From positions 1 through 60,876 of the IMG/VR virus record IMGVR_UViG_3300021961_000097: DNA of 60,876 nt; one strand, 5' to 3'. The DNA is from a virus (taxonomy: Duplodnaviria; Caudoviricetes). The position numbers and the translations under genes were made by a program. Below, one piece after another: positions 1-60,876 of the stretch. Numbering within the stretch: position 1 is the stretch's first letter; each line of letters begins with the position of its first letter. The notes beneath the pieces were generated by a model. That model was given only the letters and a program-made list of their open reading frames with translations. It was not told the DNA's origin and made no database searches.

Positions 1-158
1 GACCAGGTCGTCGTTGTCGCCATTGGGGAACGCCGCGCATTCCTCGATCACTTCATCCGCCCAGTCAGTGTCCGGTGCCCACACCATACCCGACTCGAGT
101 ATCGGCGCAACGGCATTGGCCCTCGATACCTTGTCCTGCCCCGCACGACGACCGCCGG
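1..158. repeat. Terminal overlap with 60719-60876 (circular/permuted assembly)
   Basis: 1-126 identical to 60719-60844; mismatches only at 127, 139, 142, 157. Confidence 0.97.
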
Positions 159-1365
159 GTGAGTACATGGTCACCGGCACACCTAGCCGGCGCAGTTCCT
201 GCTGAAGCGTGATCCCTGTCGCTTTGGCCTCGATCAGCACGTTATCGGGTTGCCAGTAGTCGTACTGCTCCTTCGCCAGCCGCTTCAGGTCAGGGAAGTC
301 CCAGCGGCCCTTGCGCATATCAACCAGCATCAACGACGTCGCGCTGTCGTCGTTAGGCTTAAACACACCCCACGTCGTGATCGCGCTGTAGTCCGCCGTC
401 TCCTTCTTGCTGTAGGCCGTATCGTAAGACTGGATAATGTACTCGAGCCGTGGCACATGGTCCTTGTCCCAGCGCCGCCACCACTCACGTTTCAGGATCG
501 CCCCCTCATCCGCCGTGGGCCTCTGCTGGTACATCGCGTTCCACTTCTGCACGGACAGCGACGCCTTCACCGCCTTCAACTCTTCGATCTTCCAGAACGA
601 CGGCCACAAGGCACGCTCGGTCGGCAGGTCCTCGTCGAATATCGCCGGGAACTCAATAACCTCCCACTGGTCCGCGTTGTGACTGGTCTGCGCTTTAAGT
701 AGCCTGGCAGTGAGGTCCTTGGTCCCCCAACGGGTCATCACGATCACTACAGAACCGCCCGGTTGCAAACGGGACCGGGGGCCAGAGGTGTACCACTCCC
801 ACGCATTCTCCAGCGCCAGCGCAGACAGGGCATCCTGCTCCGAGTGCGGGTCGTCGATGATCAGCAGGTCCGCGCCGCGTCCTGTCATCGCACCGCCCAC
901 ACCTACAGCAAAGTATTCCCCGCCTTCGCTCGTGTCCCACCGGCCTGCGGCCTTTGAGTCTGCCTTCAGATAGCAGTCAGGGAAGACCTCCTTGTAACGG
1001 TCAAGGTCCATAAGGTTTCGCACCTTCCTGCCAAACCGCACCGCCAGTTCGCCGGTGTGCGTGGCCTGAATCACCTTGCGTGTTGGATCACGGCCCATCA
1101 TGAATGCGGGTAGCAGATAAGATGCGAACTCGGATTTTGTATGACGCGGGGGCATGTTGACAATAAGTCTTTTCAACGTGCCGTCGGCTATGCGGTCAAA
1201 GGCCGCCGCCATCTTTTCGTGATGGCTGGAAAGGATCGCCTCGGGCCAGACGTACTTGGCAAAAGAAAGGAAACTATTCTGTGCGCCTTCCTGGGCTTCC
1301 AGCATTGCTAGGCGTAACTCGAGGCGCAGGCGCTCGGCTTCAATGTCTTCAATGGCAGTCTGCAT
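1..1365 (-). CDS. terL: Terminase large subunit, main part (continues across junction to 60605; ~492 aa total)
   Basis: Not in ORF track; translated by hand from ATG at 1365: MQTAIEDIEAERLRLELRL...RLIVNMPPRHTKSEFASYLLPA (Walker A-like)...GRGADLLIIDDPHSEQ (Walker B)...VVIVMTRWG; frame joins the NDDLVDSTTQAL nuclease motif at the other end. Confidence 0.95.
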   Translation of the reverse strand, partial: MQTAIEDIEAERLRLELRLAMLEAQEGAQNSFLSFAKYVWPEAILSSHHEKMAAAFDRIADGTLKRLIVNMPPRHTKSEFASYLLPAFMMGRDPTRKVIQATHTGELAVRFGRKVRNLMDLDRYKEVFPDCYLKADSKAAGRWDTSEGGEYFAVGVGGAMTGRGADLLIIDDPHSEQDALSALALENAWEWYTSGPRSRLQPGGSVVIVMTRWGTKDLTARLLKAQTSHNADQWEVIEFPAIFDEDLPTERALWPSFWKIEELKAVKASLSVQKWNAMYQQRPTADEGAILKREWWRRWDKDHVPRLEYIIQSYDTAYSKKETADYSAITTWGVFKPNDDSATSLMLVDMRKGRWDFPDLKRLAKEQYDYWQPDNVLIEAKATGITLQQELRRLGVPVTMYSPGGRRAGQDKVSRANAVAPILESGMVWAPDTDWADEVIEECAAFPNGDNDDLV

Positions 1366-17292: not shown

Positions 17293-18015
17293 CTAAGTTA
17301 GGGATTCGATTCTATTCGTGTCAGATTTTTTTTTCAATGCTTCTTCGTGAAATTTTTCAACGCGACGCATCCAGGCTTCCTTGTGTTGTTTAAATTCCTG
17401 GCCTGTAGTGGTGAATTCCATTGTCGAGCCGTCCCTGACCGCCATCAGCACTACGCCGAAATTGATATCGGTGCCATAGACCATGTCGTGAGCCATCGCG
17501 TATGCCGCAAGTTGTTGAAAGTAGTCTTGAATCCACTCTTTCCGTTTGGGTTTGTTTGACTGCTTGAAGTCTATGATCGCAGGTTGGCCCCGGTAGACCC
17601 CGATTAGGTCCGTGGTCCCTGCGTATTTATCCGGGTAGTAAAGTGCTATTTCACTGCCCCAGACCTCCGAAATGTTCTGGAAATAGGCGTTCACAATCCT
17701 GTACCCCATCTCGTAGCCGCGAACCATTTGCCAGTTAGTCGGGCGTGGCAGGTCACGCATCAGGACCATGCGCTCAATAACCGAGTGCAGGTAGGTGCCA
17801 ACAGTGGCCGCGTCGTTCTTGATGCGGTCGGCCTCCTCCTGGCCCACACGGGCAACCCACTCGTCCAGCTTGGTCGTGTCCTTGGTCGCGCTGAGTATGG
17901 TCGTCACGCTGGGCAGTTTCTGGTCGCCGTAAACGTAGCGACGGCCTTCCGGCAAATCCTGGCGGAGCAATTTGTGGTATTTGAATAAATTTTTTACTGG
18001 GATCAAATCAACCAA
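17293..18015 (-). CDS. PD-(D/E)XK exonuclease
   Basis: LPSVTTIL, GTYLH, YAGTTDL, IIDFKQS, QLAAYA. Confidence 0.9.
   Translation of the reverse strand: MVDLIPVKNLFKYHKLLRQDLPEGRRYVYGDQKLPSVTTILSATKDTTKLDEWVARVGQEEADRIKNDAATVGTYLHSVIERMVLMRDLPRPTNWQMVRGYEMGYRIVNAYFQNISEVWGSEIALYYPDKYAGTTDLIGVYRGQPAIIDFKQSNKPKRKEWIQDYFQQLAAYAMAHDMVYGTDINFGVVLMAVRDGSTMEFTTTGQEFKQHKEAWMRRVEKFHEEALKKKSDTNRIESLT
17309..17337 (-). promoter_or_regulatory. Sigma70-type promoter
   Basis: TTGAAA-17-TAGAAT in 3' end of exonuclease gene. Confidence 0.6.
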
Positions 18016-19457
18016 TTTTTCAACTCCTCACCCATGACGGCATTCGACAGGTCAATTTTGTCGCGCAGGGCTTTAACAATTTTTTCATCGACGGTGCCAG
18101 GACTCATCAAGTCAACGTAGGTTACCTTGCGGGTCTGCCCGATACGATGGGCACGGTCCTCTGATTGCAGGCGGACCTCCAGGTCAAAGCTATTGCTGTA
18201 GTAAACCACGGTGTCTGCCGCCGTCAGCGTCAGGCCGTAGCCGCCCGTCCTGGGATTGCCTACGAAAAACCGCAATTCACTGTCAGGGTCCTGAAACTCC
18301 TTGACCACGCGGCGCCGCTCTTCGTCGTCGGTGTCCCCATAATAGGTGCCGACAGCAGTCATGCCGTATTCTTTTGACAGCGCGATTTTTATAGCCTCAA
18401 TGTCGTGCCTGTATGTGGCCCAGATGATGACCTTGTCGGAAGCCTCTTCAATCACAGAGAGCAGTTCTTGTAGCCTGTAATTCGGTATTTCTTTGACGGT
18501 ATCGTCGTCCATCTTTACGTGGCCGCACACAATCTGATGCAGGCGCATGATCTGAGTCAGCGCGTTGACCGTGGTTACCATGCCATCGTTGAACATAGCC
18601 AAGGCCATCGTCTTCATGTCGTTGTAGGCCACAATCTGTTCCTTGGTCAACTGCACTTCGCGCTTCATGAAGACCTTGTCGGGCAGGTCCAGACACTGGT
18701 CTTTGCGAATGCGGTAGCTAAATCGGTCAATTTTTGATTTTAGTTCGTCCAGTTTGCGGTACCCGACGACTTTCTTATACGAGTGCGACGGTGCGTGTTT
18801 TTCAATCAGCACGGCGTACCGGGACCGGAAAGAATAATAACTCGGGCTATCCAGGCAGTCCTCTGACAGAAAAGCGCACTGCTGGTAGATGTCCAGGGGT
18901 GAGCGGGTGATTGGCGAACCCGTCATTATCCGGCGATATGCGGCCTGTTTGCCCAGCTTGGCAATCGCCTTTGCCCGTTTCGCAGTGTGAGTTTTGATTG
19001 TTGTGCTTTCGTCAACTGCAACAAAGCCCCTCGTTGCGTTCAGGAAGCGGCTGACGTAGGTCACGCCCTTGGTCGTGGACAAGGCCTCGACGTTCATCAC
19101 CAGTATCTTTAGATCGTCGCTGACATCCCAGAGCGCATCCAGGGCGGCCTCTTCTGCTTTGCGCGGACTCGGCGTCCAGAGCGCAGTTCGATGCGTGATA
19201 TGGTCCGGCAGGTGCTTGGGCAGTTCAATGTCCACCCAGTTCCTGTAAACACCTTTTGGCGCAATGATGATCACCGCATTAATCTTGCCTGCGTCGTACA
19301 GCATGGCGAAATTATTAATCACCATATAAGTTTTTCCGGTGCCCATGTCGGCGAAGAGTGCCGCGTAGGGTCTTTTCCAGAATCCGGCGAGATAATCGCG
19401 CTGGTGCGCGTAGGGCGGGTTTTTGAACGGATAGCGTTCCAGCCACATTGCTTCCAT
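18003..19457 (-). CDS. SNF2-family SF2 helicase
   Basis: DMGTGKT, VDEST, TGSP, GGYGLTLT, QSEDRAHRIGQ. Confidence 0.95.
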   Translation of the reverse strand: MEAMWLERYPFKNPPYAHQRDYLAGFWKRPYAALFADMGTGKTYMVINNFAMLYDAGKINAVIIIAPKGVYRNWVDIELPKHLPDHITHRTALWTPSPRKAEEAALDALWDVSDDLKILVMNVEALSTTKGVTYVSRFLNATRGFVAVDESTTIKTHTAKRAKAIAKLGKQAAYRRIMTGSPITRSPLDIYQQCAFLSEDCLDSPSYYSFRSRYAVLIEKHAPSHSYKKVVGYRKLDELKSKIDRFSYRIRKDQCLDLPDKVFMKREVQLTKEQIVAYNDMKTMALAMFNDGMVTTVNALTQIMRLHQIVCGHVKMDDDTVKEIPNYRLQELLSVIEEASDKVIIWATYRHDIEAIKIALSKEYGMTAVGTYYGDTDDEERRRVVKEFQDPDSELRFFVGNPRTGGYGLTLTAADTVVYYSNSFDLEVRLQSEDRAHRIGQTRKVTYVDLMSPGTVDEKIVKALRDKIDLSNAVMGEELKNWLI

Positions 19458-19466
19458 CAGATTATC

Positions 19467-19649
19467 CTACCAGGGCCGGACGTATGGAACGTATTTTTTT
19501 CTTAACAACTTGCAAGCGGCCTCCAGGCGCAACTCATCTTTCGGCGTGTTACGGAAGCGGTGCATGCTCAAAGCCCAGTGCATGTTTTTCAGGAACACCC
19601 CAGCAGAATTGCCACGACCAACGATCTTTTTTGCTTCTTCAATTGTCAT
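19467..19649 (-). CDS. Small basic hypothetical protein
   Basis: AAAGGAG RBS, ATGA overlap with HD gene. Confidence 0.7.
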   Translation of the reverse strand: MTIEEAKKIVGRGNSAGVFLKNMHWALSMHRFRNTPKDELRLEAACKLLRKKYVPYVRPW

Positions 19650-20155
19650 TTCAGTTCTCCTTTCTTGCCTCTGATTATACCAGTCAGTATGGCCGTTAAG
19701 CCAGGGTGCGCTTTGGTCATCAGCATGTTCAGCGCCGCTTTTTCTATCCTGTAGGTCTTGTAGAACTCCGGGTCGTATTCCTCCAGCGTCGCCATGTTGT
19801 GGATCGCGTCAGCGATCTTGATGTTGTGGGCGCCAGAAGGGCCGTCGGCAAAGTGACTGGCGTTGACTGCGAATCTACTTTTCCTGTTTTCGATCTCAGG
19901 GCCGGCGACGTTGGTGACGTACTTGACCAGGTTTGCGACGACTGGGCCGAACTCCGCTTCGATCTCTTCCAGGGTGACCGGGGTGTCCTCGACGACGTCG
20001 TGCAGGACCGCCGCCACTATCACCTCCGGCCTTGGGTCAAAAACCCTGACCAGTTCAGCCACCGCGATGGGGTGAGTGATGTAGGGGGCGCCGGTGTATT
20101 TCCTGACCGCACCCTCGTGTGCTTTCGTGGCGAATTTTACTGCTTTTTCGTACAT
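19646..20155 (-). CDS. HD-domain small alarmone hydrolase (Mesh1/SpoT-hydrolase-like)
   Basis: AHEGAVRKYTGAPYITHPIAVA, AAVLHDVVEDT, EIEAEFG..VA.LV..VT, IKIADAIHN. Confidence 0.9.
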   Translation of the reverse strand: MYEKAVKFATKAHEGAVRKYTGAPYITHPIAVAELVRVFDPRPEVIVAAVLHDVVEDTPVTLEEIEAEFGPVVANLVKYVTNVAGPEIENRKSRFAVNASHFADGPSGAHNIKIADAIHNMATLEEYDPEFYKTYRIEKAALNMLMTKAHPGLTAILTGIIRGKKGELK

Positions 20156-36103: not shown

Positions 36104-37510
36104 CTAGTTGCTTTTGTATCCTTGTATATAGTGCATGAAATCTTTGTTGGTAAAGTAAAAAGGTAACGACGGATCAGGCACCCCAGAGTATAGTTTTTTT
36201 GATCCCACAGAGCCTTTAAAAATTACCTCCCAACTATTTAACGTCCATCCTCCAGCATGGGACAACCTATCCAGGCAAACTTCATACTGGGATTGGGGCA
36301 TTTGATTTATTGAAAAATTTTTTAATATTTTTCGTATTTTTTTTATTTGAGAACCTTCTGGGTGTTTTATCCCATAATCTTTCCAAAACGGTGTATCTTC
36401 TCTGGTTGTTAAATAATGGGCGTGGATAAAATTTTTTAATTCTTCTTGATCTTCCTTGACGTATTTATTTATCCAACTAACTATTCTTCCTGCTCTATAG
36501 TTCTCAATGTTTCCTTTTAGCATATCTATGAATAAACTTAAGTAAGATATGGTCTTCCAAATACTTGTGGCTTCTAGTGGTTCTACAAAATGATGTGCTA
36601 AACCACATCCAAAACAATTTTTAACTAATATTTTTTCATGCGCGCCTGGATCAAATTTAAACTCTCTGCTGTCTAGTGGCAGGTCTACACCAAAAGATTC
36701 CTGTATTTCGTAGATGATGTCTTCTTTAGTGGCATAGTTATCATCATATACATATCCCATACCGTACCTGTCTACCACTGGAATTTTCCACACCCATCCA
36801 CTCTTCATGGCTATGGCTTCTGTTCCTGAAATAAAACTCTCATTAGCATCTATTTGTTTAAAAAATGGAATTGCGGCGTTCACTCCTAACACGTCTGAAA
36901 ATGATTTCCATTTAACCTTATAATGTTTTCCTAGTATTTCTCTTCTAAACCCTGAACAATCAAAAATAAAATCTAGTTCAATAGTTTTTTTATCATCAAA
37001 ATGTAATCTTTTAACTTCGCCATTACTTCCGTTTTCTACCCCTACAACTTTTTTATCAATATGCTCAATTCCCCTACTTAAGGCAATTTTTTTTAGGAAA
37101 ACAGCAAAAAGTCTAGCATCAAAATGGACTGCGTAACTTGGTCTAAAAGAAAACTGATCTGGAGGAGGGGGGCCATACGGAACTTTTTTGTTTAAGCACA
37201 TTTGTTCAGCCTTGTGGCTCTGATCATAATTAAAAGCATGAAAGTAAGCAGTACCCTCACCTGCCCAGTTTTTAAACAAGATTCCATACTTTACAGTAGC
37301 CTTACACTCCTTAAATACATCTAAAATATTTATTCCAACACGATCAAAAAAATTTAATATATTAAATACTGTGCCCTCCCCTGCCCCTAAAATACCAATC
37401 TCTTCACTAGCTATGACTGTTATTTTTGTATTAGGGAAACTGGCGTTTACCATTAAAGCGGTTATCCATCCCGCTGTTCCTCCGCCTAGTACGACAATTT
37501 TTTTACTCAT
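36104..37510 (-). CDS. Flavin-dependent halogenase (tryptophan halogenase family)
   Basis: GGGTAGW, GAGEGT, ATVKYGI (catalytic Lys position), FIFDCSGF, GWVWKIP, FVEPLEAT. Confidence 0.9.
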   Translation of the reverse strand: MSKKIVVLGGGTAGWITALMVNASFPNTKITVIASEEIGILGAGEGTVFNILNFFDRVGINILDVFKECKATVKYGILFKNWAGEGTAYFHAFNYDQSHKAEQMCLNKKVPYGPPPPDQFSFRPSYAVHFDARLFAVFLKKIALSRGIEHIDKKVVGVENGSNGEVKRLHFDDKKTIELDFIFDCSGFRREILGKHYKVKWKSFSDVLGVNAAIPFFKQIDANESFISGTEAIAMKSGWVWKIPVVDRYGMGYVYDDNYATKEDIIYEIQESFGVDLPLDSREFKFDPGAHEKILVKNCFGCGLAHHFVEPLEATSIWKTISYLSLFIDMLKGNIENYRAGRIVSWINKYVKEDQEELKNFIHAHYLTTREDTPFWKDYGIKHPEGSQIKKIRKILKNFSINQMPQSQYEVCLDRLSHAGGWTLNSWEVIFKGSVGSKKLYSGVPDPSLPFYFTNKDFMHYIQGYKSN

Positions 37511-51999: not shown

Positions 52000-52461
52000 T
52001 CACATGTGCAGAATATTTTCTGGGTCGCTTACGACCCCAAGAATTTCATCATCATTCAGTAGCCTGATCTCACCGCCATCAATCTGGATGCGAGAACCGG
52101 CATACCTGCCAAAGATTATCCAATCCCCCTCCTTGCACCAGGGGCCGGTAGGGAACTTAGACTCGTCCGCGTATGCCAGGTCGCCCATCTTGAGTACATA
52201 ACCTACGTTAGTAGCCAGTTGTGTTCTCTTTTGGGTCTCATCGGACAGCATAATTCCGCCCTTAGTGGTCTTAGCGCCACGATACGGTAAAATGGCAATA
52301 CGCCATCCGGTAGGGGAGGGGATTAAGTCTAATACTGGTTCGGATAGTCCTTCTTGTGACACTTTACCCTCGTCGGTATAAGCGTCATCAAGAGACGGTT
52401 TCTTGTCTTTTTTATCTTGCTCCCACTTTTGCTCAAGCGGGGTCAATTTAGCTTCTGCCAT
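52000..52461 (-). CDS. GroES / Cpn10-like co-chaperonin
   Basis: PTGWRIAILP...TKGGIML, CKEGDWIIFGRYAG, RLLNDDEILG. Confidence 0.88.
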   Translation of the reverse strand: MAEAKLTPLEQKWEQDKKDKKPSLDDAYTDEGKVSQEGLSEPVLDLIPSPTGWRIAILPYRGAKTTKGGIMLSDETQKRTQLATNVGYVLKMGDLAYADESKFPTGPWCKEGDWIIFGRYAGSRIQIDGGEIRLLNDDEILGVVSDPENILHM

Positions 52462-52946: not shown

Positions 52947-55286
52947 TTACCCTTTGGGAGCGTATATTCGTTCTCTTGCCACGTCTGCACGCTGATCAGC
53001 GATCTTTTCTTGGGACTGGATGCGTGCTTCATCTGATTCCGCATTTTGCTGTATTCGCATCTGCTCGTTGGCAATCTGCTGTTGCTTGATCTGAGCATCG
53101 GCCTGGTCTTTAGCCGCACGTTGCTGAAGTTCTTGCTCCTTCAACTGAACAATCGGGTCGGCCTCTGGCGCCCCAGACAATTCCGTCTGCATTGCTTTTG
53201 CTTCCTGGAAGTATTGCGTTACCTTCAGGGCAATCAGCGCCTCTCTTTCAAGGTCTGAGATCATGTTGTCTGGGTCGGTGCCGTATTGCTGGAACAACTC
53301 GGCCTCGGCGTCTTCTTCCGCCTTCAACTTAATGTGCTGAAGGACATGCTTTTGAAGTTCAGTTGCCGCCATAGGGTTGGCCTGTATCATTGGAGACAGT
53401 CCCATAATCAAATGCGCGGCAATGTGCGCGTCATGTTGCTGGCCGGCAAAGGCTTTTAGTGCCATCCCGTCTACAACATTAATATTTTCAGTGGCTGGAT
53501 CGACCGGCATTTGATTGGTCTGCACCTTCAAAATACCGTCAATATCGCGCACGTTTAGGGCTTGATAAACCCGGTAATACGCCTCATACATGTTGTGCAT
53601 CTGAGGCGCGCTCTGAGCCAACTGAAGCTGGGTCTGCGCCAACGTAATCCGCTGGGCCGCAGAGAAGATATTGGGGTCTGCCATCGGCAGAATCGCCACC
53701 ATATCGTCAAAATCTTTCTTTTTGATTGATCTGGAAGCACCCGGTACGTCGTATGGATACTCGTCAGGCAAGAAAAGCCCGAATCCTTCCGCCAGCATCT
53801 CAAATTCTTGCGTCTGGGCGTAATACAGGCGCTTGTGAATGGCAGACATCACCATAGAACCACGTTCCAACAGCGCAATCGTTGTTCCTACCGCCGCCTG
53901 CTGGTTTCCGTCCCCAACCTGCATGTCTGCGATGCTGGCAAGACGTCTTCCGGCCTCTACAGTGAAGCCCAGGAGGGTAAACAGGGTCTGAGACGGCTCT
54001 TTGTAGGGCAGGGGAAGCAAAGAACCGCTAAGTTCGGCGCCCCCAGCGTCAATGTCGCGCCATTCGCCGGGTTGAATCGGGTTATCATCGTCCGCAATAC
54101 GCGCACCCTTGGCTTTGAAGCCGGCGGGGAGGTTAGATAGGGTTCCAGCGTCCAATAATTGGCGCAATGCCATTGTTGCAGTCTTGGAAAGGCCACCAAT
54201 CAGGTGAACAAAGCCCAAACCGTAGGCTCCGGGACCTTCTACCAGGACATAGTGGACAAAATACTCTCTTCTGCACTTGTATTCGTCATCTTCCAGCCAG
54301 TTACGGCGCACTCCGACGATCTGGCCGCTGTTTTCGTCCAGGGTAACAACGTAAGGTAGCTTAATTCCGGTCGGTTCGCCCCCGTCATCCACGTCCTCAA
54401 AGCCAGGAATGTCCAAATTAACCTGGAATTCCAGCAAAAATATTTCTTCTGGCTCCCCGGACGGCTCCAGACCAGTAATTCGGTCAATTGAATAGCGAAT
54501 TCTGTCGCCATTTGTCGGGTCATTCTCGGGATCAACAACCACATCAAGGTATTCACCGGCCACAACGCGCTTTCTGAACTCATTTTCGTCCATAGAAATG
54601 CGGTGAGTAATGCGCGGACACTCAGAAATGACACTCGAACCGTTGTAGGGGATGTATAAATCGTCCGGCAGGACAAGCCTGGAGACCATGCGGCCCAGTT
54701 GCTCGTCATAATAGACCTTTTTAAAGGTAGAACCGCCGTATCCGGTGTAAAAAAGTAGCTGATCAAACTCCGGTGTATACTCTTTCATCACCGTTGTGAT
54801 CTGGTAATTCATGAAATCCTGTACACGGGCGGCCTGCTGGACCTTGTCCAGGGTCTCTTTGCCCAGAGTCTGGGTCCTGACTGGCCCTCCGGCAGGCATC
54901 AGTTCCTTAAACGCCTGCGCCTGGAACTGGACAATGGCCTCGGTGAGCATAGGGTGAACTGCACCAGCGGCGCCACGGAACGGGCGGGTTCTTTCCTCAA
55001 TCTTGAGGCCAAGCAATTCCAGCCCTTTGGAATACATCTGCTCCCAGTCACCACGCGACGCCTTGTCGGCATCAAACAAGGCCATCAGGTCATTGGAAAT
55101 ATGGGACATGTCCTGCGGATCAAGGACTTCAGCCAGGTTGCTGTAAAAATCTACGTCGTTTTCTTCTGCAACTTCAACGGTCGCACCGCCGTCTTCCTCC
55201 AGGACAATCTCAATATCCGGCATTTCCTCGTCAATCATGAGGATTTCCGTGGCAGGTGCAAGATTAACGACTTTATCGACTGGCAT
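52947..55286 (-). CDS. Portal protein
   Basis: Size and position; HPMLTEAIVQFQA, FKKVYYD, YGLGFVHLIGG, LRQLLDAGTLSNLP; coiled-coil C-terminus. Confidence 0.9.
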   Translation of the reverse strand: MPVDKVVNLAPATEILMIDEEMPDIEIVLEEDGGATVEVAEENDVDFYSNLAEVLDPQDMSHISNDLMALFDADKASRGDWEQMYSKGLELLGLKIEERTRPFRGAAGAVHPMLTEAIVQFQAQAFKELMPAGGPVRTQTLGKETLDKVQQAARVQDFMNYQITTVMKEYTPEFDQLLFYTGYGGSTFKKVYYDEQLGRMVSRLVLPDDLYIPYNGSSVISECPRITHRISMDENEFRKRVVAGEYLDVVVDPENDPTNGDRIRYSIDRITGLEPSGEPEEIFLLEFQVNLDIPGFEDVDDGGEPTGIKLPYVVTLDENSGQIVGVRRNWLEDDEYKCRREYFVHYVLVEGPGAYGLGFVHLIGGLSKTATMALRQLLDAGTLSNLPAGFKAKGARIADDDNPIQPGEWRDIDAGGAELSGSLLPLPYKEPSQTLFTLLGFTVEAGRRLASIADMQVGDGNQQAAVGTTIALLERGSMVMSAIHKRLYYAQTQEFEMLAEGFGLFLPDEYPYDVPGASRSIKKKDFDDMVAILPMADPNIFSAAQRITLAQTQLQLAQSAPQMHNMYEAYYRVYQALNVRDIDGILKVQTNQMPVDPATENINVVDGMALKAFAGQQHDAHIAAHLIMGLSPMIQANPMAATELQKHVLQHIKLKAEEDAEAELFQQYGTDPDNMISDLEREALIALKVTQYFQEAKAMQTELSGAPEADPIVQLKEQELQQRAAKDQADAQIKQQQIANEQMRIQQNAESDEARIQSQEKIADQRADVARERIYAPKG

Positions 55287-55343
55287 TGGGGTGCCCTCTA
55301 ACTATTCTGAGGCCATTATACATGGCATTTTTCATATATCTAA

Positions 55344-55380
55344 TGCTATAATACCCACGATTCAGAAAGGAGACTAAATC
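55344..55380 (+). promoter_or_regulatory. Extended -10 promoter and early-type RBS for the plus-strand gene
   Basis: TGcTATAAT at 55344-55352; AGAAAGGAGA at 55364-55373. Confidence 0.8.
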
Positions 55381-55626
55381 ATGAGAATCATGGAATACAT
55401 ATCTTGGGACAAGCGCCCCGCTGTTCTCTGCGCTATCGAAGCACCTACGCACCCAGAAGGTGAGTACGTCGAAGCCTACTTCATATCCTCCACTTCGCCA
55501 ACCTGGCAAAAAGCCATCCCGGTTCAATTCGTAGATATCCTACGGGAAGGCCAGGTTCTGGAGCAGGCGGACTTTGAGGAAATGTTCGGCATCATAGGCG
55601 ATACGCTCCCGGAACTTCCGGTTTAA
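55381..55626 (+). CDS. 81-aa acidic protein, only plus-strand gene; candidate immunity/antitoxin
   Basis: Own promoter and RBS; fills the gap between giant gene and portal; stop codons overlap at 55623-55626. Confidence 0.8.
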   Translation: MRIMEYISWDKRPAVLCAIEAPTHPEGEYVEAYFISSTSPTWQKAIPVQFVDILREGQVLEQADFEEMFGIIGDTLPELPV

Positions 55627-58600
55627 ATATACCGCCTGTCATTCTGAACCCTCTCGACGTTGCCGCCACGCTTGAAGTATTTAGGGGGAGGGCCGGGATC
55701 AATCAAATGCTCTGGGCTTTCAATGGGTCGCGTCTTTGGTTTCTTGGCTAATACTAACGGACCTATTTGAATAACCTGTTCTGCGTCAGCCACTGGCATG
55801 CCATCTGACTTACGATAGAAATAGCTATGCCTAAACGGATTCATGCCGACTTCTACCCAGTCGTCTGCGTCAGGCGCAGTGCCGTCTAGGATACTTTTAG
55901 CCATCTGCTCTACTTCTGCCGGGTCCATGTTTTTCCATGCACCCTGCATTCGAGCAATAGTTCCCTTGGAACTTTTCCCGGTCGCCATGTTTAATGCCGC
56001 TTTAGCATTGGATGTAAAGGCCACATTATCTAGTATGGCTGTTGGTCCATACGCCAAGGCGTTGCCACTCTTAGTGGTGCCATCATGAAGTGTAACGACC
56101 CAAGTGTCATTTCTTTCATACGCAGGGATGTCTAGTCGAGAAGAGATCATTGTGCCGTCTGGAATATCTATGTTGATGCCCACTATGCCAGCAGACCTCA
56201 TTTCATTTTTGTCTAGCGCAAGGGCGATGGTTTCGGCTGTTGCCATTTTAGGGACTTTGCCTATAGGAGTAATAGGCATCTTGTCTTCAACTACTTTGTT
56301 ATATTCTTGAGTAGTTATCTCGCCGTTTTGGAGTTTTTTTGCCGCGTCTTGAACTTCAGGCAATGGCTTCTGCTTAACGCCTTTGTGGGTTTTTTGGTAG
56401 GAATCTACCTGTTCTTTGGTGATGCCTAGCTTTTGTCTGGCGTCACCAAGGTTACCGCCAAACTGCTCAAAAGTTATTTTGCCTTTTTTGCCTGTTCCGG
56501 CGTTGGCGACTGGGCCTGTTGTGGCATCTCCTCCATCGACAGTGGAGTCGGTATCTTTGATAATCCCCTTAACGCCTGATTGAAGCGTTCCATCGGGGTT
56601 AATGTCTTCAAATTGTCTTGCTGTTTCATCTAATTTTCTCCTGTCTACTCCAGGCAACGTATACCAGGGAGTGTCTGTTGCACTGGTTACTTTAAATCCT
56701 TTCGGTACTACTTTATTTTTTGGCTTTTTAATAAAAGCCTCAAACTCTTTTTGTCTTTGAGGACTCATTCTAACAATTGATCCATCAGATAATGGATACT
56801 CGTAATAGGTCCCCTCTTTCCCGCGCCTATACGTTGCACCAGAAGAGAATGTCCTTCTCTTGCCTTCGGTAACACCTGCACCTAGCGGATCGCCGCTCTT
56901 AACTGATTTTAGGGTGCTGTGGGATACAGGTTGATTACCGGACACTAGCCAGGTTTCCCAGTGCATGCGGCCCAGGCTGGCGTCTTGCGGACGGCCTATT
57001 ATGTCATAGGCTTCTTTAGTAGCATCTTGAAGTCCGTTCTCCAACATTTCTGTAACCAGGAGACCGCGAGGACCAATAAGGATTCCAGATAGTCCGCGTT
57101 TTTTTATTCCATCATAAATATTGGCGCCGCCAAAACGACCGTCGTCCCAAAGATTTCTTGATTGAATTCTATCCATAACAAGCAGATCATCCTTTCCAGC
57201 CACAAGCCCCAGGAATGAAATAACCTTGTTATCTATTCCTGGTTTATTTGTTACTTCGTAGAACGACCTGCGGAAATCTTTCCCTGTCTTAGTTGGGTCA
57301 GCAAGTAAATTATGCAGGGTTACCAGTCCGCTACTTCCGTTTTGGCCTTTTTCACTTAGCTGACGCAATAGATTACCGGCGGCGTTTGCGTTCATGGTAA
57401 CCTGCTTGCCTGGGGAACCTTCTGGCAAGCTATTAGCAACCATTTGTTCCCAGGCCGGCATATCGGCCTCGGTCAATGTGCCTTTCACCGCCTTATCAAT
57501 AAATGGCGTTGCTTCGTCCAACAAATCAATAAATGCGCCTTCCTGCTGGAAAGGACCGGCTCCCCTCGAGAGAACGCCCCACAGGAACAGCCTGCCTGTC
57601 ATATCCGGTGTGGCCTGTCCGCTGTTATATACATTTTTAATCTCTGAAACGTATCCAAAGCCCTCGTCTGCGCTGGCCTTCATGTCTGGGCTTAGTTGCT
57701 TTAGCTTTTCTGCCAACATTCTTGGGTCGTTGGCGTACTCAATCGCCCTGAATGGAGGCGCCGGCACATAATCCCCGCCAAACACATTCTTTTCAAAATC
57801 AACCCAACTCTGGGCAGATTTCATAGCATTAGGGTAGGCTTGGATAGCCTCGTTTATGTTTGCCATGACCGCCGCTCTATTGGCTGGCGTAAAAGTTTGA
57901 ATCACGGGGATAAGCGGTTTATTACCTCCGCCAAAAACCAAAAGTTCCCTGGGTAACGCGTGCCCGACCGCGCCCTTTGGCGCCGCTTTTATTTCTATCT
58001 CGCCCAGCATCCGAGCAGAACCGGAGACTGGCTCATATCCTATTTCTCTCAGTATTGCTGGATCGGCCTGGTCTGCCGCTTGGTTATAAAGTCTAAGCTG
58101 GTCTGCTTTGGCTTGCCTGTATCTAAGCACTTCGCTTGGGGGCATCCGTTGCTCTATGTTTTCCATTCCATAAAGTTTTTCAAAGTTTCTTTCCAATTCG
58201 TATAGTTCATGGCCTCCGCCAGGCATGTCCTTCGTCCTTGAAATTTCTGGCGTCATAATCTGTAATTCGCCCAAAACTTTTTCGCCATTCTGTCCGACGT
58301 ATTGAATAGCAACCTTGCGGTCAAAGTAGCCGTTGCCTGGAATCCTGTTCCAACCCTCGTCGATTATCGCCAGGTCTTTTGAAAGCATAGATACGATCTG
58401 ATCCGCCTGCTCATTCGTATTAACCAGCATAGTTCCGCGAATAGAGTCCGGTATCTCCCCTGGCAGTAGGCTCTTGCGGACTAACTTGTCACTAATGCTC
58501 TTCAGCTTCTTGACCGGGCCGGCCTTGTACTCAACCCCAACGTCCGTTGCAATGCTCATCAATAAATTCTGAAACTCTGGATCAACGGTATTGGCAAGCT

Positions 58601-60572
58601 GGACCAGTTGTTCTGCGCTACCAATATCAGCTTGGTGACGTTTAAAGTCCGTTTCAAGTTGAGGAATGTCTGCCTGCGATATGTCTCTGACTCGTGTTAT
58701 ATTGCCGGGCTTGAATGTAAACTTTGCCGCCTTACTAGCCTGTTTTCCGGGGACGCCGGGGATAATGCCTGACATAGATAATGCCGACATTTCCCTGTAC
58801 ATTTTAGCCGCCTCAAAATCACCAGCGGCTTCTGCCTCAATAGCCATTTGGGCCAGATTGGATGCGTCTTTAACTGCGCGATACTGCGATATACCAGGCG
58901 TCATATCTAACATAAAACCTACCGGGTCTTCCTTGGCCCCTTCGTACATTGCTTTCCCAACAGTGGTTACGTCTTGACTGAATGTCTTCAGCGGCTCATC
59001 GCCCTGTATGGTTTCTGTCGCGTAGTCAGCTACTGTGCCTGGAATCTCAGCAAGACCTCGTAACATGGCCTGGGCTTGATTGCGCTTATCGTCTTTAACA
59101 ATGGTTGCTGGGCTATCCCAAATGGGGCTTTGGCCCTGCTTCTCTGTCAGATAACGCGCTTGGCGCTCTCCGCCGCTGGTCAGCCAGGAAAGGAACTGGC
59201 TGGCAGGTGACTGGCGCTGAGACCAATCTACCGTGCCTTCCTCGGTCAGAGGATAGTCAGCGGTAACAGGCATCCCAGAGTCCAACCGATTAAGCATTTG
59301 GGCGCTTTCGGTTTCTGGGGTAGCCGGTTCTTCAGCTACCCCTTCAGTTTTTTTTACGGGGCCACCTTCGGCAAACATATATGCGCCGCCTAGCGTGATG
59401 TCCTTTGGCGTTACGGGACCGCCTGCAATGCGTGTATCCGCCTGTTCGTACCTCGGCATTCCGGTCACCGGGTCAATGGTGTAGTAGTTGTAAGTGCCGT
59501 AATTTTGCGCACCTGCTGGCTGATTTCCAGCAGGTGATGCTGGCGGGTTTACAGGGGACCCGCCTGCATTCGAGGGAGTAGAAGTGTTCCACTCGCTAAA
59601 TGCTGACTTAAACGCCTCCTTATTTAACGTGTTACCGGGTCCTTGGAAGTCATTAGCACGAAGCCGATTGCGCCAGTAATTGTACTCAGCGAAATTGTAG
59701 GGCCTGTTTGACTCTCTAAAGGCATTCATCAACGCCCTGTCTTGGTCTGCGCGGTTCTGCGCATATACCTGAGAATAAGATGGCCGATAACCTCCATAAG
59801 GAGAACCCGTGCCTACATCAAGCAACTGCCTTGGCCTGCTGGTCACCACCGGCGGGGTCCAACTCAGGCCAGAGCCTGTAGCAGGAGTCAGACGCGCCGC
59901 CGGGGTGTACCTATATCCTGTGGGTGAACCCGTCAGCGGGTCAAACTCTTCTGTGCCGGGAATACGTTTCCTGACCGGAGATTCACGGAATGCCGTATCA
60001 AGTCCCGGCGTTGCCGGATTGATCGGACCGGGTTGGTAGACTGTGGAATCAGTTAGCGGACCTTTAGGCGTCGTGGCTGTCTGCACATCAAACAAGATGC
60101 TCGGGTCAATCCCGGCGTTCATCATGTCTTGGAACGTCACGCCGTATTGTGTCGCCGCTCTCTGCAACCGACGGCGCTCTTCCGGGTCAATGCCGCCCTG
60201 CTGTAACTTGTTCACCAGCGCAGTTCCACGGGCAATCGCCGCCTCACGCTCCTGCGCCGTCAGGTCAGCCAATGAAGATTTTGCCGTGGTAGGCGCAGTG
60301 AACTGCTCAACGGGGATTGGCGCTTGGGCCGTGAACACCTGATCAATAGTCGATTGCTTTACGCCTGCATCCAACATGTCCTGAACAGAGACCCCTGATT
60401 CAAGCATCTGGTTATACAGTTGCGCTCCAGTGCGCTTTTCAGGATTCGCTAGGAATTTTTGTTCGGCGGCAAGGATTCTCTGCTTCTGCTTTTCGCTGAT
60501 GCTTCCGCCTTTAGCCATTTGAATAGGAAGGCTGGCTAACATTTCACGGGCTGACATTGCCATGGTGTTCAC
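55623..60572 (-). CDS. Large polyvalent virion-associated protein with RelA/SpoT-like nucleotidyltransferase and HhH-GPD-like domains
   Basis: Between TerL and portal; KKLKSISDK..IPDSIRG..NGYFD..GELQIMT..GHELYE; PGIDNKVISF..G.DDLLVMDR; RLDIPAY..GMNPFRHSYFY. Confidence 0.8.
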   Translation of the reverse strand: MNTMAMSAREMLASLPIQMAKGGSISEKQKQRILAAEQKFLANPEKRTGAQLYNQMLESGVSVQDMLDAGVKQSTIDQVFTAQAPIPVEQFTAPTTAKSSLADLTAQEREAAIARGTALVNKLQQGGIDPEERRRLQRAATQYGVTFQDMMNAGIDPSILFDVQTATTPKGPLTDSTVYQPGPINPATPGLDTAFRESPVRKRIPGTEEFDPLTGSPTGYRYTPAARLTPATGSGLSWTPPVVTSRPRQLLDVGTGSPYGGYRPSYSQVYAQNRADQDRALMNAFRESNRPYNFAEYNYWRNRLRANDFQGPGNTLNKEAFKSAFSEWNTSTPSNAGGSPVNPPASPAGNQPAGAQNYGTYNYYTIDPVTGMPRYEQADTRIAGGPVTPKDITLGGAYMFAEGGPVKKTEGVAEEPATPETESAQMLNRLDSGMPVTADYPLTEEGTVDWSQRQSPASQFLSWLTSGGERQARYLTEKQGQSPIWDSPATIVKDDKRNQAQAMLRGLAEIPGTVADYATETIQGDEPLKTFSQDVTTVGKAMYEGAKEDPVGFMLDMTPGISQYRAVKDASNLAQMAIEAEAAGDFEAAKMYREMSALSMSGIIPGVPGKQASKAAKFTFKPGNITRVRDISQADIPQLETDFKRHQADIGSAEQLVQLANTVDPEFQNLLMSIATDVGVEYKAGPVKKLKSISDKLVRKSLLPGEIPDSIRGTMLVNTNEQADQIVSMLSKDLAIIDEGWNRIPGNGYFDRKVAIQYVGQNGEKVLGELQIMTPEISRTKDMPGGGHELYELERNFEKLYGMENIEQRMPPSEVLRYRQAKADQLRLYNQAADQADPAILREIGYEPVSGSARMLGEIEIKAAPKGAVGHALPRELLVFGGGNKPLIPVIQTFTPANRAAVMANINEAIQAYPNAMKSAQSWVDFEKNVFGGDYVPAPPFRAIEYANDPRMLAEKLKQLSPDMKASADEGFGYVSEIKNVYNSGQATPDMTGRLFLWGVLSRGAGPFQQEGAFIDLLDEATPFIDKAVKGTLTEADMPAWEQMVANSLPEGSPGKQVTMNANAAGNLLRQLSEKGQNGSSGLVTLHNLLADPTKTGKDFRRSFYEVTNKPGIDNKVISFLGLVAGKDDLLVMDRIQSRNLWDDGRFGGANIYDGIKKRGLSGILIGPRGLLVTEMLENGLQDATKEAYDIIGRPQDASLGRMHWETWLVSGNQPVSHSTLKSVKSGDPLGAGVTEGKRRTFSSGATYRRGKEGTYYEYPLSDGSIVRMSPQRQKEFEAFIKKPKNKVVPKGFKVTSATDTPWYTLPGVDRRKLDETARQFEDINPDGTLQSGVKGIIKDTDSTVDGGDATTGPVANAGTGKKGKITFEQFGGNLGDARQKLGITKEQVDSYQKTHKGVKQKPLPEVQDAAKKLQNGEITTQEYNKVVEDKMPITPIGKVPKMATAETIALALDKNEMRSAGIVGINIDIPDGTMISSRLDIPAYERNDTWVVTLHDGTTKSGNALAYGPTAILDNVAFTSNAKAALNMATGKSSKGTIARMQGAWKNMDPAEVEQMAKSILDGTAPDADDWVEVGMNPFRHSYFYRKSDGMPVADAEQVIQIGPLVLAKKPKTRPIESPEHLIDPGPPPKYFKRGGNVERVQNDRRYI

Positions 60573-60604: not shown

Positions 60605-60876
60605 TTAATAATACTCGGGGACAACTCCAGCGTGATCAGTCGGTTCATCAATCTCGTCCGATCCAAGCGCGATGAAATTGCCTGCTCGGAATCTCATGAG
60701 TGCCTGCGTCGTGCTATCGACCAGGTCGTCGTTGTCGCCATTGGGGAACGCCGCGCATTCCTCGATCACTTCATCCGCCCAGTCAGTGTCCGGTGCCCAC
60801 ACCATACCCGACTCGAGTATCGGCGCAACGGCATTGGCCCTCGAGACCTTGTCCTGGCCAGCACGACGACCGCCAG
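60605..60876 (-). CDS. terL: Terminase large subunit, C-terminal end
   Basis: EECAAFPNGDNDDLVDSTTQAL; in frame with 1-1365. Confidence 0.95.
   Translation of the reverse strand, partial: GGRRAGQDKVSRANAVAPILESGMVWAPDTDWADEVIEECAAFPNGDNDDLVDSTTQALMRFRAGNFIALGSDEIDEPTDHAGVVPEYY
60719..60876. repeat. Terminal overlap with 1-158
   Basis: See 1-158. Confidence 0.97.

Follow-up and report, generated by a model that had tools for sequence, protein, structure and literature searches.

A Tas1/Apk1-like RelA/SpoT-homologue synthetase domain within a giant polyvalent protein of a tailed phage

The window, a stretch of 60,876 nucleotides (positions 1 to 60,876 of the viral record IMGVR_UViG_3300021961_000097), encodes a giant protein of 1649 aa that contains a RelA/SpoT-homologue (RSH) synthetase (toxSYNTH) domain of the Tas1/Apk1-like branch. 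The domain was identified by profile, AF2, and Foldseek analyses and spans about 225 aa (aa 641 to 865; positions 57978 to 58652, minus strand), and we regard the assignment of its fold and family, taken alone, as highly probable. The original prediction had described a RelA/SpoT synthetase-like, toxSAS-type domain in the giant protein; the profile, fold, and motif evidence bears this out and narrows it to the Tas1/Apk1-like branch. The five motifs listed in that prediction were all found in the given order between positions 58100 and 58620, on the minus strand (aa 685 to 792 of the 1649-aa open reading frame [ORF]). That interval thus holds every motif, but the whole domain is wider. No strand was given in the prediction; on the plus strand, the frame across positions 58100 to 58620 is full of stops.

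The domain belongs to a large protein family. Residues 620 to 860 matched 464 of 1.84 billion representative proteins at an E value of ≤1e-3 and 105 at ≤1e-10. A phmmer search of the Protein Data Bank (PDB) with the single sequence gave one chance-level match, and a profile was therefore needed to place the domain. A profile built from 40 family members (alignment A1) matched residues 246 to 435 of the Tas1 toxin domain (6ox6) with an E value of 1.6e-19 and 74.3 bits, followed by SaEAS (8vx3; E = 4.5e-9), whereas RelQ-type small alarmone synthetases (SAS) reached just 0.16 to 0.6. The RelA_SpoT model search that the original prediction had proposed as a check fell short: Pfam RelA_SpoT (PF04607) scored the domain at 14.1 bits (E = 0.059) and 15.3 bits against a gathering cutoff of 27, covering profile positions 3 to 94 or 3 to 95 of 113. 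Only 7 of the 40 family members matched the same model at an E value of ≤0.01, the best at 1.2e-6. The nucleotidyltransferase fold that the prediction implied was recovered in the AF2 model (pLDDT, 94.1; pTM, 0.89), for which Foldseek returned 57 PDB matches at an E value of ≤1e-3. The matches listed were all RSH synthetases, namely, SAS1 (5dec; E = 2.2e-7), 6ox6 (E = 9.7e-6), CapRel (9erv; E = 1.6e-4), SAS2/RelP, SaEAS, Rel, and RelSeq. The highest TM-scores among them belonged to 8vx3 (0.54/0.63; root mean square deviation [rmsd], 3.6). The match of the domain to RSH synthetases is far beyond chance.

The sequence motifs point to a catalytically intact enzyme. The syn1-like motif GPVKKLKSISDKL (aa 685 to 697; 58482 to 58520, minus strand) contains K688, S692, and K696 and is followed by R699. 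By analogy with FaRel2, in which the equivalents are K66, S70, K74, and R77 (PMC11782079), these positions would bind the triphosphate of the donor ATP. In alignment A1, K69 of syn1 was invariant and K77 nearly invariant. The syn2-like motif IPDSIRG (aa 707 to 713; 58434 to 58454, minus strand) includes D709, the predicted Mg2+-binding catalytic aspartate, and D90 and R93 of this motif were invariant in A1. R712 with the following G-T fits the R-x-T pattern of adenosine pyrophosphokinases, and Tas1 aligns here as KDLARNT; the reported signatures are RYT for Apk2 and AVR for RSH enzymes (PMC12226406). The syn3-like acceptor loop, NGYFD followed by RK (aa 747 to 751; 58320 to 58334, minus strand), is conserved in A1, where G129, Y130, and D132 were nearly invariant and R133 was invariant. 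It retains GY and carries DRK in place of the SxH of RSH enzymes and the GxN of Apk2 (PMC12226406). The syn4-like motif GELQIMT (aa 768 to 774; 58251 to 58271, minus strand), with the putative catalytic residues E769 and Q771, aligns with GEIQVN of Tas1. Its E150 was invariant in A1, and the FaRel2 counterparts are E145 and Q147 (PMC11782079), but its IM differs from both the RSH (IR) and the Apk2 (YH) signatures (PMC12226406). Finally, the syn5-like motif GHELYE (aa 787 to 792; 58197 to 58214, minus strand), with H788 and Y791, aligns with GHKYYE of Tas1; Y172 was invariant and H169 nearly invariant in A1.

Across the 40 sequences, the invariant residues were K688, D709, R712, D738, R752, E769, and Y791, and these map to the donor-ATP and Mg2+ residues of FaRel2 (PMC11782079). 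K688, S692, K696, R699, D709, E769, Q771, H788, and Y791 were also kept in three close relatives. The subthreshold Pfam score and the replacement of the first syn1 arginine by Pro686 could suggest a decayed or purely structural remnant without catalysis. However, the active enzyme Tas1 has the same P-x-K, neither the window nor its three close relatives have lost any of the family-invariant catalytic positions, and the dN/dS ratios of the domain (0.167 and 0.112 against two relatives) indicate purifying selection. We consider such a remnant very improbable, and the conserved residues and the model support a catalytically competent RSH synthetase of the Tas1/Apk1-like branch.

The domain is a lineage-specific cassette, and its insertion site is a linker in a conserved polyvalent protein. 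Its boundaries were set by the alignment jumps of tblastn and blastp in relatives: in those without the cassette, the alignments skip from aa ~605 to 641 to aa 848 to 868 over 40 to 60 aa. The domain hidden Markov model (HMM) matched only the window and its three closest contigs (L004/L005, L006, and L007) and gave no match in relatives at 63 to 66% identity. Relatives at about 65% identity that lack the synthetase cassette carry Zeta-toxin cassettes elsewhere in the giant protein. A back-translated motif pattern of the domain family gave at least 100 matches in viral contigs. Homologues of the domain were fused to ART-PolyVal (P0006), Phage_Mu_F (P0011), and GNAT (P0018).

The giant gene (55623 to 60572, minus strand) encodes 1649 aa counted from a GTG start; the database representative (P0002) has 1646 aa and starts at an ATG, residue 4 of the giant protein (P0001). 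The gene follows the stop codon of the large terminase gene (TerL; Terminase_6C, E = 6.9e-9) at a distance of 33 nt. TerL lies directly upstream (1 to 1365, minus strand) and crosses position 1, with the remainder at 60605 to 60874, through a 156-bp end repeat (1 to 156, equal to 60720 to 60875). The portal gene (52947 to 55286; phrog_1216 portal, E = 1.2e-34) is next downstream on the same minus strand. The order TerL, giant protein, portal was seen in the window and in nine relatives, those whose ORF maps were inspected.

The giant protein consists of N-terminal and middle regions followed by an HhH-GPD-like core and a C-terminal module. As a whole it matched no family in Pfam, PHROGs, NCBIfam, or PADLOC, and five pieces of it gave only subthreshold noise in Pfam, save for a weak Phage_L5_gp82 match in the C terminus. 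MuF (Phage_Mu_F/SPP1 gp7, PF04233) gave no Pfam match at an E value of ≤1 in the whole protein or in the five pieces, among which aa 141 to 379 were covered only within the whole protein. In a BLASTP comparison with the MuF fusion P0011, the synthetase domain alone aligned. An ESM Atlas search with aa 380 to 640 gave nothing above 0.80. The core module (aa 866 to 1333; 56574 to 57977, minus strand) is conserved at 64 to 66% identity in relatives and has 193 family members. Its AF2 model (pLDDT, 90.4) appears to contain an HhH-GPD DNA-glycosylase-like fold at aa ~945 to 1218 (56919 to 57740), for which VIA-align gave the Ogg structure 3n0u (Z = 15.9; rmsd, 3.2; 207 of 209 residues aligned), with rows 2 to 23 likewise HhH-GPD enzymes or DUF2419. 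Foldseek matched the core only at E values of about 1e-2, and the genome had no match to the HhH-GPD Pfam model, so this fold rests on the VIA-align result. The C-terminal module (aa 1384 to 1649; 55626 to 56423, minus strand) is weakly Phage_L5_gp82-like and is common to the portal-adjacent giant proteins of Roseobacter phages CRP-9 and CRP-207. Proteins related to the core module bear Zeta_toxin, ART-PolyVal, GNAT, and LPD38 domains in differing slots, and the effector-type domains in the window's protein are the synthetase domain and the HhH-GPD-like core. The giant protein is thus a polyvalent protein with several effector domains whose combinations vary among orthologues. The occurrence of RelA/SpoT-like domains in phage polyvalent proteins, as stated in the original prediction, agrees with Iyer et al. 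2017 (PMC5512222).

A convergent 81-aa gene (P0152; 55381 to 55626, plus strand) lying at the giant-gene stop codon is a candidate for the immunity gene of the synthetase domain. It sits inside an insertion of about 300 nt, is confined to the cassette-bearing lineage (91% amino acid identity), and is absent in all eight inspected cassette-free relatives, in which the gap between the giant and portal genes is 12 nt. Its dN/dS of 0.09 to 0.16 indicates purifying selection. A possible extended -10 promoter, TGcTATAAT (55344 to 55352, plus strand), and a Shine-Dalgarno sequence, AAAGGAG (55366 to 55372, plus strand), were read from the sequence and are conserved in L004; a consensus promoter scan made no call for P0152, because the -35 element is weak. 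A minus-strand 84-aa ORF (55273 to 55527) overlapping P0152 had no Pfam match and was not taken as a gene; P0152 was preferred because of its Shine-Dalgarno sequence and the purifying selection on the plus frame.

In complex prediction, P0152 and the domain scored 0.66, and the best of three controls scored 0.00. Of 80 solved complexes, 58 reach this mark, as do 2 of 110 mismatched pairs; these reference counts are approximate here because our own alignments were used. At least 75% of the contacts agreed between runs and the partner pLDDT was at least 82, and one of the three runs (run 2) scored just 0.23. The predicted contact is a helix-loop just after the H-x-x-Y motif, and the contacted loop ENIEQRMPPSEV is identical across four cassette-bearing sequences. 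P0152 could instead be an unrelated small accessory gene that entered the same lineage by chance, a minority reading that nevertheless carries real weight. Its co-occurrence with the cassette counts as one evolutionary event, confined to one lineage, and its convergent orientation is unusual among toxin-immunity pairs. It matched nothing in Pfam and nothing meaningful in a PDB profile search (Tis1 was not among the matches), and no homology to Tis1 or IapK was detectable. A word-based homologue search found only four close relatives and none outside the lineage, and the best ESM Atlas score was 0.76; run 2 of the complex prediction points the same way. Against chance entry stand its place in the insertion at the giant-gene stop codon, its absence from the eight cassette-free relatives, the strong purifying selection, the passed complex prediction with controls at 0.00, and the identical contacted loop. 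These observations lead us to infer that P0152 is a candidate immunity protein.

A second possible restraint is a small alarmone hydrolase (SAH) of 169 aa with an HD_4 domain (19646 to 20155, minus strand; PF13328, 62.6 bits against a cutoff of 27.2, E = 1.3e-18), encoded 35 kb from the synthetase domain behind a promoter-like site (20206 to 20179). In a phmmer search of the PDB it matched Rel hydrolase domains (7.7e-19), MESH1 (6.2e-17), and the (p)ppApp hydrolase 7smg (1.6e-8); its sequence is nearer (p)ppGpp-type hydrolases than Aph1. Among 80 viral records bearing the synthetase-domain family, 8 had an HD_4 gene and none was seen in the other 72; among the 20 domain-bearing viral records at least 90% complete, 4 had one. 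The HD_4 gene lies about 1.4 kb from the domain gene in L083 and about 0.7 kb in L126. None of 30 records from relatives without the cassette had an HD_4 gene, a weak control given that 29 of the 30 are fragments. The contig of G001, the long cassette-bearing relative, ends on either side of the window's hydrolase region, and a search of viral contigs for homologues of the hydrolase gave one distant locus. The hydrolase could destroy an alarmone product. Since small alarmone hydrolases are also able to undo tRNA pyrophosphorylation, the presence of one would not discriminate between an alarmone-making and a tRNA-targeting synthetase. The earlier description of this locus did not include the hydrolase, the adjoining candidate immunity gene, or the lineage-specific insertion.

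The synthetase would most likely move the beta-gamma pyrophosphate of ATP to the 3'-OH of an adenine nucleotide, making (p)ppApp. The acceptor might instead be a guanine nucleotide, with (p)ppGpp as the product. Because some Apk1 homologues are reported to make (p)ppGpp only or both products (PMC12691689), the product cannot be read from family membership, and swapping the signature motifs left the specificity of Apk2 unchanged (PMC12226406). A toxic effect, by draining of ATP and a halt of host metabolism, would be expected, and P0152 and the hydrolase would probably restrain the enzyme. Alternatively, the domain could be a translation-targeting toxSAS like FaRel2, PhRel2, or CapRel. These share its fold (CapRel 9erv is among the Foldseek matches), and the acceptor loop GYFDRK, with basic R752 and K753, is unlike both the guanosine and the adenosine signatures. 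Yet, by sequence profile, Tas1, a (p)ppApp synthetase, is much closer than any other solved structure, none of the eight PDB profile matches at an E value of ≤10 was a tRNA-targeting toxSAS, and syn2 has the Apk-type R-x-T. Moreover, tRNA-targeting toxSAS are neutralized at the donor site (PMC11782079), whereas the predicted P0152 contact is away from the syn1 and syn2 donor-site motifs. A translation-targeting enzyme is therefore quite unlikely in our judgment, and an alarmone synthetase, probably of the (p)ppApp type, is preferred.

Since its gene lies between those of the large terminase and the portal, the giant protein probably occurs in the head in few copies and exits the capsid along with the DNA; gene position and analogy with polyvalent proteins, which Iyer et al. 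predicted to be packaged and coinjected (PMC5512222), suggest this. The enzyme may instead be active without being injected, acting late in the producing cell or on neighbors after lysis, as has been suggested for MuF polymorphic toxins. The giant gene lies within an apparent late structural operon, an adjoining immunity-type gene would suit a toxin active in the producer, and the delivery route of MuF-fused Apk2 is itself described as unresolved (PMC10083569). This alternative is disfavored by the polyvalent domain syntax, by the portal-adjacent position of related giant proteins in CRP-9 and MW202701, and by the finding of neither a tyrosine integrase nor a serine recombinase in a record rated 100% complete, and we consider it unlikely though worth keeping in view. 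The same finding makes a lysogen that gains kin immunity unlikely. For the preferred chain as a whole, in which a (p)ppApp-type synthetase cassette is injected with a head protein and restrained by P0152 and the hydrolase, we see a slightly better than even chance. An extension of it, a self-limiting alarmone pulse, is speculative and rather improbable. In such a pulse, a flood of (p)ppApp or (p)ppGpp would freeze host metabolism and nucleotide-dependent defenses at entry, and P0152 and the hydrolase would be expressed next from host-type promoters. The synthetase would then be switched off and the alarmone recycled to ATP and ADP, so that replication could proceed; the immunity pair would serve as a timer within the infected cell rather than as kin protection for a lysogen.

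Phage-borne alarmone-synthetase toxins are known; the arrangement seen in the window is new. The trio of Apk2, IapK (Tis1-like), and Aph1 is known in prophages (PMC10083569 and PMC12226406), with Bacteroides caccae, Streptococcus pneumoniae, Mannheimia, and Pasteurella as hosts. As in that system, a phage head-module protein bears a Tas1-related pyrophosphokinase domain, and the same phage encodes a small binding inhibitor (here a candidate) and an HD-type hydrolase. In contrast, Apk2 is MuF fused with a C-terminal toxin domain, whereas here no MuF was found and the domain is internal, with 784 aa after it, in a 1649-aa polyvalent protein that has an HhH-GPD-like core. Further differences are that the putative inhibitor is encoded convergently and does not match Tis1 in sequence, that the hydrolase is 35 kb off and nearer the (p)ppGpp type, that no integrase was found, and that syn3 and syn4 do not show the Apk2 signatures. 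Tas1/Apk1 of Pseudomonas aeruginosa, a type VI secretion system (T6SS) effector paired with Tis1, is the closest solved relative by profile (6ox6) and shares the syn1 P-x-K, syn2 D-x-x-R, GE-x-Q, GH-x-x-YE, and the fold. Unlike the phage domain, it is delivered on the PAAR/T6SS spike; the two are 17% identical in structural alignment, and their acceptor loops are GYSGVN and GYFDRK, respectively.

The polyvalent proteins of Iyer, Burroughs, Anand, de Souza, and Aravind (2017) likewise combine an RSH module with a portal or terminase neighbor, and the examples in the available text are spirochaete and epsilonproteobacterial (pro)phages and MuF fusions. Beyond those examples, the present locus has a scaffold of HhH-GPD-like core and L5_gp82-like C terminus, accessory genes, and a place in marine phage contigs. 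FaRel with ATfaRel (SAH) and AT2faRel (Tis1-like) is similar as a (p)ppApp toxSYNTH under dual control by a binder and an SAH, but it is a chromosomal tricistronic toxin-antitoxin operon, whereas here the domain lies within a phage protein of the structural module. SaEAS, VpEAS, and AaEAS are exported Apk1 homologues, among which 8vx3 resembles the window's domain in profile and fold; they are exported by Sec, the type VII secretion system (T7SS), and other routes and make (p)ppGpp or both alarmones (PMC12691689). In the full-text literature, whose supplements may list such architectures or Apk1 homologues, we found no paper linking ppApp to virions and polyvalent proteins and none on a small alarmone synthetase ejected from a phage capsid.

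In the Apk2 papers, the virion carriage and injection of the toxin are given as unknown (PMC10083569). With 464 representative clusters and poor coverage by Pfam, the synthetase-domain family is probably underannotated in phage genomes. The locus offers a natural comparison between nearly identical phage scaffolds, some carrying the cassette and others lacking it. Together, the cassette and a predicted binder, in a genome in which no integrase was found, make the hypothesis of an injected effector directly testable.

The original prediction had placed a toxSAS-type RelA/SpoT synthetase-like domain at 58100 to 58620, citing five motif strings. All five were present in the claimed order in the minus-strand frame of the giant protein P0001, at aa 685 to 792 (58197 to 58520) and thus inside that interval, and the plus strand of the interval contained stops throughout. 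The database representative of P0001 starts at the ATG of residue 4 and has 1646 aa. Searches of the whole protein against Pfam, PHROGs, NCBIfam, and PADLOC returned no match. The RelA_SpoT HMM search suggested as a check was run on the excised domain and gave a score below the cut-off of 27 (14.1 bits, E of 0.059), and the NCBIfam YjbM GTP diphosphokinase model gave an E of 0.025. A HMMER search with aa 620 to 860 against 1.84 billion representatives identified 464 proteins at E ≤ 1e-3, of which 105 reached E ≤ 1e-10 and 14 reached E ≤ 1e-30; their lengths ranged from 98 to 5090 aa. The domain was aligned with 39 of the shorter matches, and the consensus read G-x-K-x3-R/S-I-x2-K...D-x-V-R-G...D-E-G-W...G-Y-F-D-R-K...G-E-V-Q...G-G-H-x-L-Y-E, with K688, D709, R712, D738, R752, E769, and Y791 invariant. 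Pfam RelA_SpoT matched 7 of the 40 members at E ≤ 0.01. In a PDB search, the profile of this alignment matched the Tas1/Apk1 (p)ppApp-synthetase toxin domain (6ox6, E of 1.6e-19) and the exported alarmone synthetase of Streptomyces albidoflavus (8vx3, E of 4.5e-9); RelQ-type enzymes were weak (E of 0.16 to 0.6).

The AlphaFold2 model built on the same alignment (pLDDT, 94.1; pTM, 0.89) had 57 Foldseek matches in PDB at E ≤ 1e-3. The listed rows were the RSH synthetases Bacillus subtilis SAS1, RelP/SAS2, 8vx3, Tas1, RelSeq, Rel, RelA, and CapRel, and among these 8vx3 had the highest TM-scores (0.54/0.63; rmsd, 3.6), consistent with the expected nucleotidyltransferase fold. The available text of PMC11782079 gives R64, K66, S70, K74, R77, D90, E145, and Q147 as the donor-ATP/Mg2+ residues of FaRel2, and the counterparts in our domain are K688, S692, K696, R699, D709, E769, and Q771. 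In place of R64, the first Arg of FaRel2, the domain has Pro686, as does Tas1, which reads A-P-I-K. The syn2 motif (D-S-I-R-G-T) shares the D-x-x-R-x-T pattern with Tas1 (D-L-A-R-N-T). Compared with the signatures in the accessible part of PMC12226406, syn2 fits Apk2 (RYT) and departs from the RSH pattern, whereas syn3 (GY-F-DRK) and syn4 (E-L-Q-IM) are unlike the guanosine and Apk2 signatures alike. The dN/dS values of the domain were 0.167 and 0.112 against the related viral contigs L004 and L007, respectively, indicating purifying selection, and the motif residues were all conserved in three close relatives. Altogether, the observation behind the original prediction was confirmed and the identity of the domain is supported; the domain is a catalytically competent-looking RSH synthetase of the Tas1/Apk1-like branch.

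The virus record of 60,876 bp is rated complete (100%), and its minus strand carries nearly all of the genes judged plausible. Positions 1 to 156 are repeated at 60720 to 60875 with 98% identity, although the source record is classed as linear without end repeats. The large terminase gene (1 to 1365, wrapping to 60605 to 60874, minus strand; Terminase_6C, E of 6.9e-9) spans the junction of this repeat. The 1649-aa giant gene (55623 to 60572, minus strand) lies between the terminase and the portal gene (52947 to 55286, minus strand; phrog_1216, E of 1.2e-34). On the same strand, a GroES-like co-chaperonin gene (52000 to 52461; phrog_3188, E of 2e-18) is located between the portal and head genes and is followed by the major head protein gene. 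The structural block also contains a 468-aa gene (36104 to 37510, minus strand) matching phrog_2928, annotated as tryptophan halogenase (E of 9.6e-100); no homologue of it was found in the close relative G001.

The architecture of the giant protein was drawn from tblastn and blastp comparisons with relatives, for which 34 related viral-contig loci were recovered. The N-terminal region (aa 7 to 300) and the middle region (aa 390 to 640) showed 30 to 40% and 30 to 38% identity, respectively, followed by the synthetase cassette (aa 641 to 865; 57978 to 58652), which is present only in the closest relatives. The core (aa 866 to 1333) showed 55 to 66% identity, and the C-terminal module (aa 1384 to 1649) showed 48 to 61%; between them is a variable slot (aa 1334 to 1383) of 50 aa in the window and 265 to 609 aa in relatives. 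At the N terminus (aa 1 to 140; 60153 to 60572, minus strand), a short repeat occurs twice, as GVSVQDMLDAGV and GVTFQDMMNAGI, before a Pro/Gly/Asn-rich low-complexity stretch that continues until about aa 400. Besides the window, the domain HMM found the synthetase in L004/L005, L006, and L007, whose proteins share 76 to 80% identity with the giant protein over its whole length, and it found no synthetase on the remaining related contigs. In cassette-free relatives, the alignment jumps across 40 to 60 aa, compared with 225 aa in the window. These results indicate that the domain is a cassette inserted into a linker.

Related proteins carry other effector-type combinations. Three relatives of the giant protein without the synthetase cassette (L016, 3538 to 9585; L017, 3989 to 8824; L020, 1842 to 7709) have Zeta_toxin (PF06414) in the second slot, between the core and the C-terminal module. 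In these three loci, the portal gene follows the giant gene after 12 nt, without an adjacent small gene. The core search identified at least 193 proteins; the best 120 of the 193 had lengths of 915 to 2882 aa, and some of these 120 carry Zeta_toxin, ART-PolyVal, GNAT, or LPD38 domains. Homologues of the synthetase domain itself are fused to ART-PolyVal (P0006) and GNAT (P0018), and the 1042-aa protein P0011 combines Phage_Mu_F with two tandem synthetase domains (aa 629 to 790 and 838 to 981). A motif-pattern scan of viral contigs gave at least 100 stretches, and the domain was present in all 80 loci listed from it, C-terminal or internal in proteins of 260 to 3782 aa. The giant-protein family thus shows the domain syntax of polyvalent proteins sensu Iyer et al. 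2017 (PMC5512222). As the original prediction had stated, that source, in the text available, notes RelA/SpoT domains in phage polyvalent proteins and MuF fusions, and predicts their packaging in the capsid.

The interval from the giant-gene stop to the portal ATG is about 300 nt in the window and L004 and is occupied by the convergent 81-aa open reading frame P0152 (55381 to 55626, plus strand); this gap is 12 nt in all eight cassette-free relatives inspected. By sequence inspection, P0152 has a ribosome-binding site (AAAGGAG) and an extended -10 element (TGcTATAAT), conserved in L004. It has four close database homologues and dN/dS values of 0.09 to 0.16; it showed no Pfam family and no useful match in the Atlas or PDB. 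P0152 is confined to the cassette-bearing lineage, and its co-occurrence with the cassette represents one evolutionary event. Complex prediction using the domain and P0152 alignments gave a median score of 0.66 (runs of 0.69, 0.23, and 0.66), with 0.00 for the best of three controls, contact agreement between runs of at least 75%, and a partner pLDDT of at least 82. Of 80 solved complexes, 58 reached this mark, as did 2 of 110 mismatched pairs; these counts are approximate, as own alignments were used. The predicted contacts on the domain are at aa 794 to 819, covering the end of the H-x-x-Y helix and then the ENIEQRMPPSEV loop and a helix, and this loop is identical in four cassette-bearing sequences. 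P0152 is therefore regarded, on the predicted complex, as a candidate immunity protein for the synthetase domain.

A small alarmone hydrolase of 169 aa is encoded at 19646 to 20155 (minus strand; Pfam HD_4, 62.6 bits), directly beyond the last structural gene and with its own promoter-like site. It matched Rel hydrolase domains (7.7e-19) and MESH1 (6.2e-17) in PDB, with weaker resemblance to the (p)ppApp hydrolase 7smg (1.6e-8). Just downstream, a 484-aa protein (18003 to 19457, minus strand) has the look of a SNF2/DEAD-type helicase when its translation is inspected by eye. An HD_4 gene was found in 8 of 80 viral records with the synthetase family (4 of 20 among those at least 90% complete), at about 1.4 kb from the domain gene in L083 and about 0.7 kb in L126. 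None was found in 30 records of cassette-free relatives, 29 of which are fragments, and in the one long cassette-bearing relative the sequence ends on either side of the hydrolase region.

In the proposed mechanism, the head-module polyvalent protein, which we infer to be packaged in the virion and injected, would carry the cassette as a pyrophosphokinase with ATP as donor, forming (p)ppApp or possibly (p)ppGpp. Apk1 homologues can make either product, as stated in the part of Ahmad et al. 2025 (PMC12691689) consulted. P0152 would restrain the synthetase through binding, and the hydrolase would restrain its effect by degrading the product. This set parallels the prophage Apk2-IapK-Aph1 trio, as described in the available portions of PMC10083569 and PMC12226406. 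The record, rated 100% complete, yielded no integrase or resolvase, which argues against kin immunity of lysogens and for a role within the infected cell. Polyvalent proteins with RSH domains, (p)ppApp synthetases carried by phages, and dual immunity are already known. What is new is the scaffold, which lacks a MuF domain, holds the cassette internally, and has an HhH-GPD-like core; the natural comparison that cassette-bearing and cassette-free scaffolds offer; P0152 as an orphan, convergently oriented putative binder; and the setting in a marine phage that is apparently non-temperate. A full-text literature search on related combinations, with supplements outside its scope, found no paper.

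Conservation within the giant protein is highest at aa ~945 to 1218 (56919 to 57740, minus strand), a region predicted to adopt an HhH-GPD DNA glycosylase-like fold. VIA-align superposed it on Thermotoga Ogg (3n0u; Z of 15.9; rmsd, 3.2; 207 of 209 residues aligned), and rows 2 to 23 were HhH-GPD enzymes or the queuine-salvage enzyme DUF2419. The segment PGIDNKVISF...LVMDR, with K and D invariant across 28 sequences, resembles a helix-hairpin-helix with the catalytic Asp after it, by comparison with EndoIII. The Pfam HhH-GPD sequence model had no match in the genome. This glycosylase-like core of a virion-module protein, common to at least 193 proteins, may merit separate study.
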